Positions 41,436 through 53,056 of a DNA stretch of 64,000 nucleotides are shown piece after piece. A program made the position numbers and the translations under genes. Origin of the DNA: an uncultured Gammaproteobacteria bacterium (GTDB taxonomy: Bacteria > Pseudomonadota > Gammaproteobacteria > UBA9214); NCBI GenBank assembly GCA_963773065.1, contig CAVYZN010000028.1, forward strand, positions 1 to 64,000, read 5' to 3'. Numbering within the stretch: the stretch's first letter is position 1; each line of letters starts with the position of its first letter. Under the pieces are notes generated by a model. The model worked only from the letters and a program-made list of their open reading frames with translations, had not been told where the DNA came from and ran no database searches.

Positions 41436-41582
41436 TCAAGGGCGCGGGTGAAGGCGGAAGAATACCGTAGGCGGGACGGCGCCCACAACCGGCAAGGGCC
41501 GAGGCACCCCACCCTTACCTGGCCGCTAGGCATCACCTGCTAAAGCCACCAGTAGCGAGCTCATCGTATGTAACGGGCCAAG

Positions 41583-41683
41583 AGCCGGAGGGGCCGGGCG
41601 AGACGTCGGCCGTAGGGATGCAGGCCGGCGAGCGCTCGCACGGCCTCAACCCTGCGGCCGACGGTCCCGCCCGGCCCCTCCGG
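41583..41683. repeat. Long GC-rich intergenic hairpin (REP-like)
   Basis: gccggaggggccgggcg...gtcggccgtaggg ... ccctgcggccgac...cgcccggcccctccggc. Confidence 0.65.
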
Positions 41684-41784
41684 CTCTACGCCACATGACT
41701 CATGTTTTACTTGACCTGGCAAGCTACACACCGGCGCCGCTTTGGTCCACACTTGTCACTCTGGCAGAACACGAGGCAGGCCCG

Positions 41785-42312
41785 ATGACCGACGAGAAGT
41801 CCACCCGTGAGAAATGGCTGCGGGCCTACGATGACATGATGGTGCGGGTCAAAACGGCGATCGAGGAAGCGGAGGAACACACGTTCCCCGCCATCAAGCG
41901 CCATATCGCCAAGGCCCGCGACACGGCCGTCGAGCTGGAGGAACTGACCAGGGACGAGGCCGAGAAGATTGCCTACTTTCTTGAGCGGGACCTGGAGGAT
42001 GCCGGCAAGCACATGGCCGAGAGCGGCCATGAACTGAGCGACTGGCTGCGTTTCGATATCGGTCTGATCGAGGACCGCCTGCTGGAGGTCCTGTTGAAGG
42101 TCGCCGACCATACCCGCCTCGACATGCTGCAGTTTGAACGCGACCTCAAGGAAGGGCCGCTCTACAACGCCGGCGAGGTCACCGGTCCCGGCACGCTGGT
42201 CTGCAACGCCTGCGGCGAGGTCATCCGCTTCCACTCAACCGGTTATATCCCGGAATGCCCCGCCTGCGGGCACACCGTCTACCATCGCAAGTCCGTCACG
42301 GACGAAATCTGA
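41785..42312 (+). CDS. YbeL/DUF1451 zinc-ribbon protein
   Basis: ADHT, YNAGEVTGPGTLVCNAC, CPAC; divergent from leuS. Confidence 0.9.
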   Translation: MTDEKSTREKWLRAYDDMMVRVKTAIEEAEEHTFPAIKRHIAKARDTAVELEELTRDEAEKIAYFLERDLEDAGKHMAESGHELSDWLRFDIGLIEDRLLEVLLKVADHTRLDMLQFERDLKEGPLYNAGEVTGPGTLVCNACGEVIRFHSTGYIPECPACGHTVYHRKSVTDEI

Positions 42313-42479
42313 ACCGGCGGTGACCGCACCACTGAAGAATGGATGGGGTCACCCCTTAGCCAGCCGGTGTTAACAGCGTAAGTAAAGCTCTGTTGAACAT
42401 GTCAACATCATAAAACAACAATGCCATTGATACGGTCCTTTCGCACCCGCTTTTTCACTGAGCGTGATGTCGCGGCATA

Positions 42480-42742
42480 ACCCTGCGCATCAGTCACCCC
42501 TCTGGATCAAGATCGAATCGATGGTCTGATTCAATCCCTGGTACCGTGGGTACCCCACAAAATACTCGGTACCGTCCAGCGTCCAAAAATGAGCATCACA
42601 GAATGTATGGCTGGCCCGAAGGCCTCCAACCCTTGGGTGGCTCGCTGGACGGGCGAAGGGCGTATTCAATGGCCGGCCGGGACCTCCAATCAGAATCTCA
42701 TGGTTGTACCAACCCCATTGCCTGGCTGATCCCGGCCGCCAA
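42480..42742 (-). ncRNA. Putative bridge/seek RNA of the IS110 element (ends approximate)
   Basis: Two stem-loops whose internal loop strands match the target flanks (ATGGGGT, GATTCTGA) and the donor junction (GGATT, AGGGGTGA). Confidence 0.65.
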
Positions 42743-42744
42743 TC

Positions 42745-43752
42745 TTAACCGAACAGACGCGCGGCATCGTAATGGGTCTGATCGCGTAACATGCAGTAAC
42801 TGGCGCGGGCCAATTTGTGCGCCACCGCCCGGATCGCGACGATACCGCTGGTCTGCGCGCGCTTGCGCTCAAAGAAGCGCTTGGCCCGCGCATCAAAGCG
42901 CACGGCGAAGTGGGCCGCTTCGGAGAACGCCCAGGACAGGTACTTGTTGCCGGCCTTGCGGTTGCCTTCGCCCTTCTTCTTGCCGTTGCTGAGGCGCTCG
43001 CTGTTGACGCAGCGGCAGTACGAGGCGTAATTGCCTGGGCTCTTGAAGCGGGTAATCTCGCCCGTCTCAAGCCAAATGGTCATGCCCAGAATCGGCCCCA
43101 CGCCGGTGATGGTCTGCAAAATCTTAAAGGCCGGCGCCACCCGCGCCGCCGCCAACGCGGCCTGTTCCAGCTCGTCAATCTCCCGCTGGAGCGCCCGCTG
43201 CACGCTCAGCAGGCTCTGCGCCGCCAGCTGGTCGTGCCCGGGCGGTAACGGCACGGCAAACTCCGGCTTGCGTATCAGGCTTGCGCTGATCCGCTCTCCG
43301 GTAGAACGCCAGAGCTGGCTCTGAATGCTGATCAGGCGTCCCGCCGCGATCCGCACCAGTTGCATGCGCCGGCGCAGCAGATCGCGCACCGCGCGTTGCT
43401 CCTTGGGATAAATATACCCCGTCGGCAGTATCCCCAGGCGCATCAGGTGCGCCAGCCAGAACGCATCGTGAAGGTCATCGCTGTACTTCAGGCCCTCATA
43501 CTGGCGCACCGCCGCGGTGTTGACCAACCGCAGCGGGTAGCCGGCATCCTGCAATCCATCCACCAGCCAGTACCAATTGAAGGTCGATTCCACGGCAACC
43601 CCCAGCAGCTCCGCCTTGAACGGCTGCAAGGCCTTCAGCGTCACCGCCAGATCATTGGGCAGCCGCCGTTCAAAAACCCGTTTGTCATCCTCATCAATCA
43701 CCACAACGACGTGGTTGTTGGAATGCAGATCAATCCCGCAGTAAAGTGTCAT
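42745..43752 (-). CDS. IS110-family transposase/recombinase (335 aa)
   Basis: GIDLH, AVES, KYSDDLHDA (DEDD domain), TITGVG, LSNG, AVAHKLAR; GGAGG RBS. Confidence 0.95.
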   Translation of the reverse strand: MTLYCGIDLHSNNHVVVVIDEDDKRVFERRLPNDLAVTLKALQPFKAELLGVAVESTFNWYWLVDGLQDAGYPLRLVNTAAVRQYEGLKYSDDLHDAFWLAHLMRLGILPTGYIYPKEQRAVRDLLRRRMQLVRIAAGRLISIQSQLWRSTGERISASLIRKPEFAVPLPPGHDQLAAQSLLSVQRALQREIDELEQAALAAARVAPAFKILQTITGVGPILGMTIWLETGEITRFKSPGNYASYCRCVNSERLSNGKKKGEGNRKAGNKYLSWAFSEAAHFAVRFDARAKRFFERKRAQTSGIVAIRAVAHKLARASYCMLRDQTHYDAARLFG

Positions 43753-43922
43753 AACAGCCTCCTGGGTTGTGTTGAGTGACCAACACCAGTGTATACACCG
43801 GTGCCAACCACTCAGGAGGCTGGCTAGAGGATTATCAGACTCGATTGATCGGATGCACGAAAAACCGTGGTCTGTCCCGATTTTCCCGAAGGGGACGCCA
43901 CAAATCGCCAAGGAGATGAGAG

Positions 43923-45330
43923 ATGACAGAACGATCCAAAACACTCGCGAAGCTGCCCGAAGGGTTCATCGGGGCGCTCCGCGCCGGGCTCCGGGGCCAG
44001 GTCCTGACCCAGGAAGATGCCGGATACGACGAGGCTCGCGCCGTGTACAACGCGATGATCCAGCGCAGGCCGGGTGCGATCGCGCGGGTCGCGGACGTGG
44101 CGGACGTCATCGCGTGCGTCAACGCCGCGCGCGAGGCGGGCGTGCTGGTCGCGGTGCGCGGGGGTGGCCACAACGCGGGCGGTCTCGGTGTCGTCGACGG
44201 CGGTCTCGTCGTCGACCTCTGCGGTCTACGCGGCATTCGCGTTGACCCGCGGGCCCGCACCGTCCGCGTGGAAGGCGGCGCCACGTGGGGCGAACGTCGA
44301 CCACGCCACACATCCCTTCGGCCTGGCCACACCGTGCGGCTTCATCTCGACCACCGGCGTGGGCGGGCTGACACTCGGTGGCGGCACCGGCAATCTCACG
44401 CGAAGTTGCGGGCTGACGATCGACAATCTGATTTCCGCCGACGTGGTGCTTGCGGATGGGCGCATGGTTACGACAAGCGCCGACGAGCACCCCGACCTTT
44501 TTTGGGCGCTTCGCGGTGGCGGGGGCAACTTCGGCATCGTCACATCGTTCCTGTTCCGCGCCCATCCCGTGAGCATGGTCATCGGCGGCCCCACGTTCTG
44601 GGCGCTCGAGCAGGCCGAGGACGCCCTGCGCGGGTTTCAGAATCTGATCGAAAACGCACCGGAGGAGCTCGGCGGGTTCTTCGCGTTCCTCACCGTGCCG
44701 CCCGTACCGCCGTTCCCGGAGGACCTCCACGGCCGCAAGGTCGCTGGCGTCGTGTGGTGTTTCAACGGGCGCCAGGAGGCCTTCGACCGAACCGTCAACC
44801 CGCTCATCTCGGCCGTGCCGCCGTTACTCCACGCGCCTCACGAGCTCCCTTACCCGGCGCTCCAGTCGTTCTTCGACCCGCTCTATCCGGCTGGGCTCCA
44901 GTGGTACTGGCGCGCGGACTTCATGGGCAGGCTCTCGGACGACGCCATCCGCGAGCACGTGCGGCACGGGGCCACGCTGCCGACGGGGCACTCGACGGTA
45001 CACCTCTACCCATTGAATGGCGCGGCCGCGCGCGTGGGCGCGGGCGACACGGCGTACCGCCACCGCGACGCGTTCTGGTCGCAGGTCATCGTGGGCGTCG
45101 ACCCCGACCCAGGCAACGCCGACACCCTTCGCGACTGGACGGTCGGCTACTACGAGGCGCTCCACCCGTTCTCGACGGGCGCGGCCTACGTGAATTTCAT
45201 GATGGACGAGGGCGCGGATCGCATCCGCGCGACCTATGGGGCGAACTACGATCGCCTCGCGAAGATCAAGCGGCAGTATGACCCCGACAACTTCTTCCGC
45301 GTGAACCAGAACGTGCCGCCGGCCGCGTAG
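43923..45330 (+). CDS. FAD-binding oxidoreductase, berberine-bridge type (frameshift near 44290)
   Basis: VRGGGHN, TGVGGLTLGGG, LFWALRGGGGNFGIVT, YVNF, YDPDNFF. Confidence 0.93.
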
Positions 45331-45348
45331 CGTCCACCCAAGGAGATA

Positions 45349-46182
45349 ATGGACATGCCACTCTATCTGGATCGTCACTACATTGAAAATATAACCCGCG
45401 AGGTCATTGCCGATGCTCATGAAAAAGATCTGGAGATCCAGGGGAAATATGGGGTTAATTTCCTGACGTATTGGATTGATGAGCCGCGATGTACCACTTT
45501 CTGCCTGGTGGACGCACCCAATAGGGAAGCAATCCGGAAAGCTCATGCGGAAGCGCACGGGGCCGTGCCCAGTGAAATCATCGAAGTCGAATCCAGTGAG
45601 GTCGAGGCCTTCCTGGGTAGAATCAAAGACCCGGTGCTGATAGAAGCGGGGGTAACGTGGGGCAGCGTACCCAGAGACTCGGCCTTTCGTGCGATCATGT
45701 TCACCGACTTGAAGGACTCAACCGCGATGACTACCCAGCTGGGTGACAAGAAGTCGCTGCACTTGCTCCACATTCACAATGCGGTCACCCGCAATGCACT
45801 CCGCGACTACGCGGGTCGAGAGGTGAAGCATCTAGGGGATGGCATCATGGCTTCCTTCGCGTCCATGACGCAGTCTGTCGAATGTGCCATAGCGATTCAG
45901 AGCGCGTTTGCAACGTATAACAGCGAGCACCCGGAGGCCCAATTGCATCTGCGGATTGGCCTGAGCGCCGGTGAACCGGTGGAAGAGGACCACGATTTGT
46001 TTGGGGCAACGGTCCAGTTGGCGGCCCGCCTCTGCGCTCATGCCGAGCCCGATCAGATTCTGGTGGCGCAAAATGTTGTGGAGAACTATTCGGGCGAGAA
46101 ATCGCTGTTCTCTGAGGCAGGCCAGATCACGCTCAAAGGTTTTGATCAACCTGTGCACGTGTATGTTGTCAAATGGCGGTGA
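45349..46182 (+). CDS. DUF4242 (SCO4226-like) domain fused to a class III nucleotide cyclase
   Basis: MPLYLDRH...AHEKDL...FCLVDAP...HAEAHG; then MFTDLKDST, VKHLGDG, LRIGL, DLFG..V.LAAR, LKGF. Confidence 0.85.
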   Translation: MDMPLYLDRHYIENITREVIADAHEKDLEIQGKYGVNFLTYWIDEPRCTTFCLVDAPNREAIRKAHAEAHGAVPSEIIEVESSEVEAFLGRIKDPVLIEAGVTWGSVPRDSAFRAIMFTDLKDSTAMTTQLGDKKSLHLLHIHNAVTRNALRDYAGREVKHLGDGIMASFASMTQSVECAIAIQSAFATYNSEHPEAQLHLRIGLSAGEPVEEDHDLFGATVQLAARLCAHAEPDQILVAQNVVENYSGEKSLFSEAGQITLKGFDQPVHVYVVKWR

Positions 46183-46206
46183 ACGGAAAGGAAACGGATG
46201 GGAAAC

Positions 46207-46334
46207 GGATGGGGTCAGACTCGATTGATCGGATGTGAATTTCCCTATTGGGAATGGATGGTGGATGGGAATCAATCGAAGGAAATGGGGGACAGACCAC
46301 GTTTTGACTAAAAACGTGGTCTGTCCCCCATTTC
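46207..46334. repeat. REP cluster next to the RAYT gene
   Basis: ggatggggtcagactcgattgatcggatg (46207-35); inverted pair gaaatgggggacagaccacgtttt/aaaacgtggtctgtcccccatttc (46282-46334); related copies at 43861-86 and 47128-49. Confidence 0.88.
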
Positions 46335-47025
46335 GCCCCGGCTTTGCCGGTCTTCCCGCATTTCCGGGCATGACGCGTCGTTGCAGCATGCAGGAGACTT
46401 CTACCTTGAAGCGGTCGTTACCCAGGGCGTAATTGCCATTGGTGGCGGTACGAATTTCAGCGATCAGGTTAAGGTCAATGCCGGTGTCAAACAGACGCCG
46501 GTAATTGGCAAGACGCGATGCCTCCGTCTCGACGAGCGCCAGGTATTCGGCATGCGGCGTCAGCCCGTCTCGGCGCGAGCCCTGACCGTTGGCAGGGTAG
46601 CTTGACCAGCGGTATTCCGCCGGGTGTGTCGCCATGCCGGCGCGCACCGGGTTCATTTCGATATACCGGTAACAGGCGAGTACATAGGTGCTTTCCTGAA
46701 CCAGGCAGGAACGGAAGCGGCCTTCCCAGAGAGTGCCGCTGCGCCGGTAGCTGCGGTTGATGTATTGGATATAACGCTGACCGAGGTGTTTCATCAATAG
46801 CGCGGCGCTATTATGTCGTTCCGGGGTGAGGAGCAGGTGTACATGATTTGTCATCTGGCAATAGGCATGTATCCTGCAGCCATAGTTAACAGCCTGCTGA
46901 GCCAGGGTATCGAGATAATAGTAGTGGTAATCGCTGTGGTCGTAGAAGCAGGCGGTGCGATTATTGCCACGCTGGATGATATGCCAAGGTATGCACGGTA
47001 CGACCAGACGGGCACGACGCGGCAT
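46308..47025 (-). CDS. REP-associated tyrosine (HUH/Y1) transposase, RAYT
   Basis: MPRRAR, HIIQRGNNR, MTNHVHLL, LWEGRF, YIEMNPVRA, YRWSS; the ORF as read runs to 45832, but removing one G from a G5 run gives a stop at 46308. Confidence 0.92.
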
Positions 47026-47090
47026 ATGAGGTACCTGTATCAGGACAGATCGAGTGTCGTGATGGTGGACGCATGGACAAGGAGGGTCTG

Positions 47091-48611
47091 TCAGTCACGC
47101 GAGTACCGTCGCGTCAGGAAACCATGGAAACGTGGTCTGTCCCCCATTTGCCACACCAGCAGCAGGCACATCACGGTCAGGATCACGACGGGCGTATTGC
47201 CCAACAGCACATAAGGCGTCGCGCCCTGGCGGGGCGTGACGGTTCCCGTGACCACCGCCTCCTCGAACTGGCGGCTGCGGGCGATGACCCGGCCGTTCTC
47301 ATCGATGATCGCGGATATGCCCGTATTGGTGGCTCGCAGCATGGGCCGGCCGGTTTCCTTGGACCGCAGCCGCGCCATTTCCAGGTGCTGGTGCGGCGCG
47401 AGCGAATCGCCAAACCAGCCATCGTTGCTCACGTTGACCAGCAAGGCGGCCTGCGGCAGTGCCCGACGGATCTCCTCGCCGAATACCACCTCGAAACAGA
47501 TCGAGGTGGCCACGGGATAGCCGGCGGCCTCCAGCAGGGGTTGCGTCGCCTCCCCGCCGGAGAAATCCGCATTCGGCACCGCCAGGGCGTCCAGGCTGTC
47601 GCCCAGCACCCGGCGCAGCGGCAGGTACTCGCCGAACGGCACCAGGTGCTGCTTGTAGTAGAAGCGCCGTTCCCCGCCGATGGACACCACGCTGTTGTAG
47701 TAGCGCCAGGTGGCCTGGTCCAGCACCGGAATTCCGGTCAGCAGCACGGCGCCCGACTGGCGCAGCCCGGTTTCGATTTGCGGGATGAGGCTGTCCTGCA
47801 CCTGGTCATAAAACGCGGGTATGGCGGTTTCGGGCCAGACCACCACATCCGTCGCCGGCAATTTGAAGGTGAGTTCCGTATAGCGCGTCAGGGTATGGGT
47901 CAGGTTTCCCGGCGCCCATTTGGTTTCCTGGGCGATGTTCCCCTGAACCAGCGCCACCTTGAGAGGCGCGCCGCGCGCTTCGGTCCATGCAACACGGTCG
48001 AGCAGGTAGCCGCCCGCCCAGATCACGCAGAGGACGATCAGACTCGGCAGGCGCGCCCGGTTTCGCACCAGCGCCACCAGCAAGGCGGCCGTCAGCGCCA
48101 CGGCCAGCCCGACGCCATAGACTCCCGAGAGCGGCGCGTAGCCGGCCAGCGGGCCGTCAATCTGGCTGCTCCCGACAGTCAGCCAGGGAAAACCGGTGAA
48201 CAGCCAGCCGCGCAGCCATTCACTCAGCACCCAGCCGGCCGGAAACGCGACCAGGAGCCGCCAGTCCGCAGCCGGCAGGCAGCGCTTGAGACAATAACCC
48301 AGCAAGGCGGGATACAGGCTCAGAAAGACCACCAGCGCCACCGTCACCAGCACGGCAGCCGGCGCGGGTACATGCCCGTAGGTATGCACGCTGACGTACA
48401 CCCAGGAAACACCCGCGCCGAAGTACCCCAGTCCGAACAGGACACCGTGGCGCAAAGCCTGGCGCGGGCTATCCCGCAGCCACTGGTTGAACAGCACGGC
48501 GAGCGACAGAAACGCGAGCGGGTACCAGCCCAGGGGGGCGAAGGCGGTCACGCCCAGCGCGCCGGCAATCAGCACGAAGATCCCGCCGAAGCGGACAGTC
48601 AGGTTGGTCAC
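47091..48611 (-). CDS. lnt: Apolipoprotein N-acyltransferase
   Basis: FTGFPW, VQGNI, WPETA, KQHLVPFGEY, ICFE, SNDGWF. Confidence 0.96.
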   Translation of the reverse strand: MTNLTVRFGGIFVLIAGALGVTAFAPLGWYPLAFLSLAVLFNQWLRDSPRQALRHGVLFGLGYFGAGVSWVYVSVHTYGHVPAPAAVLVTVALVVFLSLYPALLGYCLKRCLPAADWRLLVAFPAGWVLSEWLRGWLFTGFPWLTVGSSQIDGPLAGYAPLSGVYGVGLAVALTAALLVALVRNRARLPSLIVLCVIWAGGYLLDRVAWTEARGAPLKVALVQGNIAQETKWAPGNLTHTLTRYTELTFKLPATDVVVWPETAIPAFYDQVQDSLIPQIETGLRQSGAVLLTGIPVLDQATWRYYNSVVSIGGERRFYYKQHLVPFGEYLPLRRVLGDSLDALAVPNADFSGGEATQPLLEAAGYPVATSICFEVVFGEEIRRALPQAALLVNVSNDGWFGDSLAPHQHLEMARLRSKETGRPMLRATNTGISAIIDENGRVIARSRQFEEAVVTGTVTPRQGATPYVLLGNTPVVILTVMCLLLVWQMGDRPRFHGFLTRRYSRD

Positions 48612-52644: not shown

Positions 52645-53056
52645 GGGAGCCGGCCGGTAAGCCGGGTTCTGTCGTGGACAGCCATTCATCTGGGATGCAC
52701 GTCACCGCGCACCTCAAGCAACCTACCCGGGAACCATGCGGGCCGCATGATCGTTCCCCTATTTGGTCTTGCTCCGGGTGGGGTTTTCCCTGCCACGTCT
52801 GTTGCCAGACGCGCGGTGCGCTCTTACCGCACCATTTCACCCTTACCGACACCAACGCGCCGGCGGTATATTTTCTGTGGCACTTTCCGTAGGCTCGCGC
52901 CTCCCAGGCGTTACCTGGCACCCTGCCCTGTGGAGCCCGGACTTTCCTCCAGGAAAATGGGGGCAGAGTCAATCTTGTTGGTGATAATCAATGCCGAAAA
53001 CTGGCAAAATAATTGACTCTGACCCCATTTTCCCAGCGACTGTCTGGCCGACTCCC
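52645..53056 (-). ncRNA. rnpB: RNase P RNA, class A
   Basis: GAGGAAAGTCCGGGCTC, AGTGCCACAGAAA, GGTAAGGGTGAAA, ACAGAACCCGGCTTA; complementary ends GGGAGTCGGCC/GGCCGGCTCCC. Confidence 0.98.

Follow-up and report, generated by a model that had tools for sequence, protein, structure and literature searches.

A 64,000-nt stretch of DNA from an uncultured gammaproteobacterium (positions 1 to 64,000 of contig CAVYZN010000028.1, assembly GCA_963773065.1), referred to here as the window, carries an insertion sequence (IS) that interrupts a short repeat, and an identical, unoccupied copy of this repeat lies 2.4 kb away. Analysis of this filled and empty pair, together with relatives of the element, led to an account that we consider very likely as a whole: an intact IS of the IS1111 group was guided by RNA into the repetitive extragenic palindrome (REP) of a REP-associated tyrosine transposase (RAYT) that is a paralogue of the RAYT encoded nearby. 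The mechanism in this account is proposed by analogy with ISEc11, ISPa11 and IS621. The features discussed are listed in Table 1.

The left piece of the interrupted repeat and the right piece, taken without its TCA, rejoin exactly into the 29-mer of the unoccupied copy, as an earlier note on this DNA had claimed and a script verified. The 29-mer occurs once in the window at up to three mismatches, and none of 100 dinucleotide shuffles gave a match. Direct reading of both junctions and of the 29-mer showed that only TCA is present twice, so there is no target duplication at this insertion beyond a short core. The two sub-terminal inverted repeats (IRs) are perfect across 9 bp with no extension beyond, and they lie 5 and 8 nt from the core, where the earlier note had placed them.

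Relatives of the element were then used to examine the ends. They comprise 80 loci from GTDB species representatives and 80 from JGI metagenome contigs, 160 in total, at 50-71% amino acid identity. In 80 distinct relatives with both flanks readable, the left junction triplet (in transposase orientation) is TGA in 77, while the right junction has TGA in 46, TGT in 19, TGG in 5, CGA in 3, CGT in 3, TGC in 2 and CGG in 2. At the left junction, the base that follows TG behaves like a piece of the element (77/80 compared to 46/80), and the core that is exchanged is therefore probably only the 2 nt TG (CA on the + strand), not 3 nt. The third shared base in the window, the A after TG, is probably a coincidence of target and element end; TCA would be seen twice as three bases because the target happens to carry an A there too. 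The earlier claim that the filled and empty pair defines the exact ends and core thus held for the ends, which are fixed to within the 3 nt of TCA, and probably needs correction for the core. Public Logan contigs with 94-97% identity to the element either begin at 42349 or depart from it after 43838, in agreement with both predicted ends. Judged from sequence, both ends are also fixed by an internal copy of the right end (RE) and by a predicted promoter that arises only when RE and the left end (LE) join, which are described below.

The interrupted repeat, (c)aATGGGGTCAGACTCGATTGAT, is an imperfect 25-nt palindrome (ATCAAT...ATTGAT) with the insertion point at its tip. Its family core, GGGTCAGACTCGATTGATC (the repeat is also given as GGGTCAGACTCGATTGAT), has 15 matches at up to three mismatches in the 3.84-Mb assembly, one of which is the half-site at 43832. 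The 14 further copies include four inverted pairs with a spacing of about 35 nt. The 29-nt match is between two members of one interspersed repeat family and not between two random sequences, although the two window copies agree at about seven more positions than the family consensus. Of 24 other genomes in the same taxonomic family, 19 contain the repeat, with as many as 37 copies, and a reversed-pattern control gave 0 everywhere. In two sister-genus genomes, inverted copies bracket a RAYT: in G014, copies at 230567 and 231385 of contig C5 lie on either side of a RAYT at 230624-231286, and in G017 the same arrangement is seen on C3. This bracketing indicates that the target repeat is a true REP, and the suggestion that the element sits in a REP was borne out by the palindrome, the interspersed copies and the RAYTs of these two genomes. 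Beside its RAYT, G014 also has an unusually dense cluster of 17 target REP copies within 9 kb (L186, contig 5, 230.5-239.7 kb).

Judged by its sequence, the element is an intact member of the IS1111 group, within the IS110 family of RNA-guided DEDD recombinases. The transposase frame is open on the minus strand from 43752 to 42748, with the stop codon at 42747-42745. The protein matched PF01548 over residues 5-141 (E 6.8e-18, 65.4 bits compared to a cutoff of 29), PF02371 (59.2 bits, cutoff 21.3) and the NCBIfam model for IS110-family RNA-guided transposases, NF033542 (184.1 bits, cutoff 140). All three scores are above cutoff and agree with the IS110 family membership proposed before, which can be narrowed to the IS1111 group. 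The only sequence matches in the PDB were the ISCro4 and IS621 transposases, both remote and weak. The non-coding ends are 82 nt upstream of the start codon (LE) and 393 nt after the stop (RE). The group assignment was made because the element combines short sub-terminal IRs, a long downstream non-coding end and a transposase of the 330-350 aa class, the three marks of IS1111 elements in the accessible parts of two studies (PMC11187229; PMC11208160). The same assembly holds two remote IS110-family paralogues with 31% and 28% amino acid identity. One of these (L189, 31%, contig 32 at about 198.7-201.9 kb) lies about 1 kb from a paralogue (42-45% amino acid identity) of the FAD_binding_4 gene that neighbors the IS in the window. 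A link between IS110-family elements and FAD_binding_4 genes was considered and set aside as probably a coincidence, with the L189 pair joined by only one of the 160 other loci (L124).

The 393-nt RE is predicted to encode a guide RNA of the seekRNA or bridge-RNA type. Its target-binding loop consists, in order, of an outer stem, AAUGGGGU (the T guide), the hairpin UGG-UACAA-CCA, GAGAUUCUGA (the B guide), UUGG and a closing stem. The RNA alignment was built from 99 distinct sequences, the window and 98 loci; the remaining loci lacked downstream DNA, did not fit the search expression or were duplicates. RNAalifold predicted 15 pairs, 13 of them with compensatory changes. At the loop pairs, 92.2% of the cells were paired compared to 62.5% in shuffles. 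The covariation score was 0.788, compared to 0.205 in shuffles (none of 500 reached the observed score) and 0.06-0.09 with slid partners. The window copy forms all 15 pairs, and its own minimum free-energy fold agrees (z -2.5). An Rfam search of the non-coding end returned no curated family; the sole hits, sub-threshold miRNA models on the REP hairpin at 46282-46334, were dismissed as spurious.

The two guides correspond to the two flanks of the element. The T guide, the 5' segment, is the reverse complement of the right flank, and the B guide, the 3' segment, repeats the left flank and the core. This correspondence was tested on 158 parsed loci, which gave 78 distinct pairs of B guide and left flank and 71 of T guide and right flank, with 200 shuffles each. 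Mean agreement between B guide and left flank was 7.22 of 10 positions compared to 5.41 after shuffling, and that between T guide and right flank was 7.14 of 10 compared to 5.51; the maximum over the 200 shuffles of each test was 5.82. Agreement is high across about eight positions per side. Elements with odd flanks carry matching guides as well (L038, L044, L077 and L023), and the targets followed in this way include sequences other than REPs, such as those of L038, L044 and L077. The order of T guide, hairpin and B guide, with both guides reaching into the core, is that described for IS1111 seekRNAs, in which the match to the top strand comes first, on the 5' side, and overlaps the match to the bottom strand where the crossover falls (PMC11187229, accessible text). 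The accessible text of PMC11208160 likewise places the bridge RNAs of IS1111 elements in RE and describes them as often multi-loop.

Further modules were found downstream of the target loop. The middle module is shaped like the target loop, with a T2 arm, a hairpin and a conserved B2 arm ending in CUGUGA. The last 4 nt of T2 track the right flank, with 5.0 matches compared to 4.21 in shuffles (maximum 4.64; 33 pairs). In a tentative and rather doubtful reading taken up below, this module may serve recognition of the integrated right junction, that is, excision, or a handshake step, which would go beyond the two loops of IS621. Of the two predicted donor guides, the one that corresponds to RE is the better match. 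An internal copy of the element's own last 5 nt of RE plus TG is present in 88 of 90 relatives with both ends readable, compared to a mean of 2.2 with shuffled non-coding ends. Six of seven loci with a variant RE, the window element among them, carry their own variant internally and not the consensus. Since the variant end and its internal copy changed together, the right end is fixed independently of the empty site. Two candidates in this region were rejected. GGGATTGAATCA, near 42520-42535, was dropped as a donor guide since relatives put the LE-type guide at about +180, and the likeness of 42505-42535 to the target REP (TCAGAC..TCGATT..TTGATC) was taken as chance, as it is not kept in relatives that hit the same REP.

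Circles of this family are known to carry a promoter at the joint of their ends. When RE, one core and LE were joined by script, a sigma-70-like site, TTAACA-17-GATAAT, was obtained, which fits such a joint promoter, and the 17-nt spacing demands exactly one copy of the core. Of 90 loci, 68 have a similar promoter over the joint, and only 5 have one over the left flank and LE, as in the integrated state. A promoter scan found no promoter-like site in the integrated element of the window.

Together with the analogies named above, these features suggest the following mechanism. On excision the element would form a double-stranded circle, with a single core copy between RE and LE, and this joint would create the sigma-70 promoter that drives the transposase. 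The seekRNA or bridge RNA encoded by RE would then read the target on both strands: the T guide, AUGGGGU, would pair with one strand of the right target flank, and the B guide, GA-U-UCUGA, with the other strand of the left flank and the core. Both guides together would specify about 14 nt, ATGGGG-TCA-GA-N-TC on the + strand. Downstream loops that hold copies of the element's own ends (AGGGGUGA equals RE plus core) would recognize the donor. Recombination at the core, probably at CA within TCA, would insert the element without a real duplication.

The 14-nt target has four perfect unoccupied sites in the assembly, compared to 0.11 expected: 46209 and 53015 in the window and an inverted pair on contig 8. 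The match of the empty site at 46207 to both guides is exactly that of the occupied site. This empty site is predicted, with the other three, to be a usable landing site, in line with the earlier expectation for 46207. The site at 53015 belongs to a REPIN-like inverted pair, 52957-52970 (+) and 53015-53028 (-), of a further REP type (...AGAGTCAAT...). Another interspersed palindromic repeat lies at 41576-41692, upstream of the DUF1451 gene, with arms of 29-30 nt that are 77-90% complementary; copies were seen on contigs 6, 8, 20, 22 and 31 of the same genome and in the genome G004.

Table 1. Features of the element, its target sites and the neighboring RAYT (positions in the window)
Feature	Position	Strand	Basis or remark
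Left half of interrupted target REP, ggatggggTCA	42341-42351	+	First TCA copy at 42349-42351; rejoins with 43835-43855
IS1111-group insertion sequence, 1,483 bp without either TCA (assigned from sequence)	42352-43834	-	RE at low, LE at high coordinate; ends common to relatives
Sub-terminal IR, RE side, TAGCCAGCC (+ strand letters)	42357-42365		5 nt after TCA; same 9-mer in many relatives
Predicted -35 hexamer TTAACA in RE	42368-42373	-	Predicted usable only once ends join
Predicted donor guide AGGGGUGA	42494-42501	-	Exact internal copy of last 5 nt of RE plus core
Predicted LE-complementary donor guide GAGUAUUUU	42559-42567	-	Position about +180 kept in relatives
Middle module	42596-42638	-	
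Predicted seekRNA/bridge-RNA target-binding loop	42674-42738	-	Outer stem around T guide, small hairpin, B guide; covariation and fold
B guide GAGAUUCUGA	42690-42699	-	Last 8 nt equal left flank plus core GAGTCTGA except position -6
T guide AAUGGGGU	42712-42719	-	Last 7 nt complementary to right-flank top strand ACCCCAT (transposase orientation)
Transposase gene, 335 aa and stop	42745-43752	-	DEDD/RuvC-like N-terminal domain, PF02371 C-terminal domain
Sub-terminal IR, LE side, GGCTGGCTA (+ strand letters)	43818-43826		8 nt before TCA; direct reading, relatives
Predicted -10 hexamer GATAAT across LE start and core	43831-43836	-	Scripted joint
Right half of interrupted target REP, TCAgactcgattgatcggatg	43835-43855	+	Starts with second TCA copy; direct reading, rejoin, repeat family D4
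Diverged (82%) RAYT-type REP	43863-43884	-	7 nt from occupied target REP; repeat D1
Unoccupied target REP, 29-mer	46207-46235	+	Sequence reading and scripted rejoin
Predicted 14-nt recognition sequence ATGGGGTCAGACTC in empty REP	46209-46222	+	Guide match
Perfect 24-bp hairpin, two copies of the RAYT's own REP, GGGGGACAGACCACGTTTT	46282-46334	.	Repeat search
RAYT gene (Y1_Tnp)	46342-47025	-	PF01797, 46.2 bits, cutoff 23
RAYT's own REP on other side of gene	47128-47149	-	Inverted relative to 46283-46304; repeat I6
Further perfect 14-nt match ATGGGGTCAGAGTC	53015-53028	-	Second head of REPIN-like pair

The relatives share one architecture. In transposase orientation it reads left flank, TGA, TAATCCTC, TAGCCAGCC ... 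GGCTGGCTA, ATGGG, a triplet that is mostly [TC]G[AT], and right flank. Three of them (L028, L112 and L115; 66-68% amino acid identity) are inserted at the same position of the same REP, with a left flank that ends in ...AATCGAGTC directly before TGA. In the clade, 67 of 94 readable right flanks begin with [TC]G[AT]CCC. A tentative extension, which we regard as possible but rather doubtful, is that a large and mostly uncatalogued IS1111-type clade specializes in the GGGG[T/A]C head of RAYT-type REPs as a hyperparasite, that it retargets from one REP family to another through one or two bases of the T guide, as exemplified by this copy and the variants about 96% identical in sediment runs, and that the third, conserved loop (42596-42638) has one constant arm and another that recognizes about 4 nt of the right flank. 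Two individual relatives were unusual. L099 (positions 1-300, a metagenome contig) has two elements, 94% alike where compared, arranged head to tail with a single TGA between RE and the next LE; this tandem could be an insertion into the right junction or an assembly artefact. In L054, part of the element's own seekRNA region recurs, as its reverse complement, in the 19 nt to the left of the element.

The earlier note had also proposed that the element uses the REPs of the neighboring RAYT as landing sites, in which case it would live off that RAYT's repeats. The layout of the window invites this reading: 107 bp separate the empty site from the end of the RAYT gene, the filled and empty sites each adjoin a RAYT-type REP copy (43863-84 and 46282-334), and both REP families share the head ATGGGG.CAGAC. 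However, the window's RAYT has inverted copies of GGGGGACAGACCACGTTT (GGGGGACAGACCACG), not of the target REP, on its two sides, and two orthologues of it in G017 (75% identical) are bracketed by the same GGGGGACAGACCACGTTT repeat. The RAYT that is flanked on both sides by the target REP in G014 and G017 is a paralogue, 48% identical. In addition, the RAYT's own REP has ACA where the target REP has the TCA core, plus an extra G, and therefore fails the 14-nt guide match. By these pairings of RAYT and REP, the note named the class of target correctly but assigned the target to the wrong RAYT. The reading is already largely refuted, and we consider it very improbable. A different question is whether the 29-nt identity came from local duplication of a composite block made of the target REP and a RAYT-type REP, which would leave the IS reading unchanged but would mean that the two sites are not independent. 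Both window copies share ggatg on both sides, where the family consensus is caatg and variable, and a RAYT-type REP follows both in the same orientation. The whole stretch 42330-47150 is also missing in G003, a genome of the same genus. The identity ends exactly at 29 nt, though, with unrelated sequences to the left and from 43856 and 46236 onward, and the spacing to the second REP differs (7 nt compared to 76 nt). Such a duplication is judged unlikely.

Several observations weigh against our account of an RNA-guided insertion of an intact element. Neither movement nor a target consensus was observed for this exact element, which has a single copy in the assembly (33 contigs, 3.84 Mb, 91% complete), and no copy above 71% amino acid identity was found in the GTDB species representatives (best 71%) or the JGI metagenome contigs (best 70%). 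In this same 91%-complete assembly, no RAYT cognate to the target REP was found. The guides of the window match at seven of eight positions per side, with a B-guide mismatch at position -6; agreement at this position across the family is 0.64, the lowest of the first eight and tied with position -8. Some relatives fit their guides poorly, for example in the left flanks of L015, L016 and L017, and the LE donor guide matches the reverse complement of the LE start at only 7 of 9 positions, weaker than the other guides. One Logan contig, about 96% identical, runs past LE (43838) into a flank that is not this REP, where only five of eight positions fit the B guide of the window; it could be a retargeted variant or a chimeric contig. 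Evidence for the RNA itself consists of one 174-nt contig from one metatranscriptome (42497-42669), which lies outside the target loop and may be DNA carry-over. Finally, the clade has the motif S-N where IS1111 transposases have a C-terminal S/T-G (PMC11187229, accessible text), and the HMMER alignment to ISCro4 sets N256, not S255, opposite the catalytic serine.

Some of these points would suit an element that looks intact but is a stranded, immobile relic, in which case 46207 would be usable only on paper. There is one genome copy despite four perfect free targets, the integrated state lacks a promoter-like site in the scan, the B guide carries its mismatch, and the motif is S-N. On the other hand, the transposase frame is open over its full length and keeps the residues conserved in at least 98% of 158 relatives, including S255-N256, which is invariant in at least 98% of these clade members. 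Neither sub-terminal repeat has a mismatch. The joint change of the variant RE and its internal guide copy implies that selection acted on the donor interaction once the element had diverged from the consensus. Runs of three studies yielded contigs 94-97% identical to the element, and a low copy number is usual for this family. We consider a relic improbable and prefer the reading of an intact, RNA-guided element.

Sequencing runs were also searched, and none of this organism turned up. Each run held at most 27% of the sampled words, and the absence of contigs across an empty 42341 or a filled 46207 in them bears neither way on polymorphism. Joints listed for these contigs had short sides (21-32 nt) at 90% likeness and were set aside. 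In runs X1 and X2 the bin with the left junction (42222-42382) was uncovered. Contigs from these two runs, about 96% identical, differ within the T guide by a deletion paired with an insertion, at 42717 and 42720, and these changes would make the guide read AAGGGG in place of ATGGGG. The head AAGGGGTCAGAGTC is present in REPs on contigs 1 and 20 of this genome.

The surroundings of the element are rich in insertions. In G003, the DUF1451 gene (41695-42312 in the window) abuts lnt (47091-48611), and the block 42330-47150 with the IS, a FAD_binding_4 gene, a SCO4226-like/cyclase gene, the REPs and the RAYT is absent. This adjacency in G003 points to a 4.8-kb insertion-rich island in the present genome. 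Five RAYT loci were found in the assembly, each with its own repeat, and the target REP flanks none of them. The RAYT frame of the window (45832-47025, minus strand) is open for 397 aa: it crosses the RAYT's own REP hairpin, then the empty target REP, and reaches the opposite strand of the cyclase gene. Related RAYTs have open frames of 229-262 aa, and the normal stop of the window RAYT seems to be missing.

A natural filled and empty pair, combined with relatives, makes the guide code of an IS1111 element readable without experiment, including its 8+8 nt, its crossover and the bases that belong to the element. The case also shows that a REP beside a RAYT is not necessarily that RAYT's REP, and that several REP families whose heads are alike coexist in this genome, each linked to a RAYT lineage of its own. 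For annotation, the gain is a new IS with ends within 3 nt, a predicted non-coding RNA and four predicted landing sites. For the engineering of bridge recombinases, it adds one more natural orthologue, whose target loop is compact and well supported, and no new principle. With the closest relatives at 71% and 70%, the element is new by the usual IS criteria and was previously uncatalogued. The clade or its multi-loop RNA may already appear in the ISfinder-wide data of PMC11187229 or the supplements of PMC11208160. The earlier note had looked to a flank alignment of all copies of the element; no second copy was found in the genome, the GTDB representatives or the JGI contigs, and the alignment was made on relatives only.

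The closest named relatives in the plasmid collection are, by protein comparison, transposases of the ISGsu4 family (an NCBI annotation name), with only about 50% amino acid identity over 99% of the length. ISPa11, ISEc11, ISKpn4 and ISPst6, the IS1111 elements with experimental seekRNAs (PMC11187229, accessible text), resemble the element in their sub-terminal IRs, long downstream non-coding region and transposase of 330-350 aa, and also in the relative position and overlap of the two strand matches. According to the available portion of PMC1525189, ISPa11 is also inserted in REPs, in 6/6 copies. The element differs from these four in its target sequence and, with its whole clade, in having S-N as its C-terminal motif and not S/T-G; the comparison was made with their published descriptions. 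As a REP system, the target itself is typical in being an imperfect 25-nt palindrome that is interspersed, mostly in inverted pairs 35-55 nt apart, and brackets a RAYT in G014 and G017, but differs in that no RAYT is bracketed by it in the window's own genome. ISPpu9 and ISPpu10 of Pseudomonas putida, members of the IS110 group, likewise insert at one REP position, often in inverted REP pairs, and share a dinucleotide with their target, which leaves their ends ambiguous by the core as here; they also form circles (PMC12288879, accessible text). They differ in the lack of sub-terminal repeats, the core AG, the regulatory sRNAs Asr9 and Ssr9, and the REP family of another host.

IS621, an IS110-group element with a bridge RNA and cryo-EM structures (8WT6 and others), shares the DEDD and PF02371 domains with the element. 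Its RNA loops likewise read target and donor on both strands, and it has a short core, a circle and a REP target in E. coli, as the accessible sections of PMC11208160 describe. The sequence match to IS621 is remote (E 4.6e-6 across residues 208-332). The RNA of IS621 lies in LE upstream of the gene, whereas that of the element is placed in RE; the core is CT compared to TG(A); the guides are 9+4 nt compared to about 8+8 nt; and the donor-binding part of the element is multi-loop, unlike that of IS621. That IS110-family elements target REPs has been on record since IS621 and a 2006 survey (PMC1525189; PMC12288879, both in their accessible parts), and RNA guidance in the family since 2024, by the accessible text of PMC11187229 and PMC11208160. 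With the multi-loop donor RNAs of IS1111 elements also on record (PMC11208160, same sections), all three were already known, and the present case is an unusually clean one.

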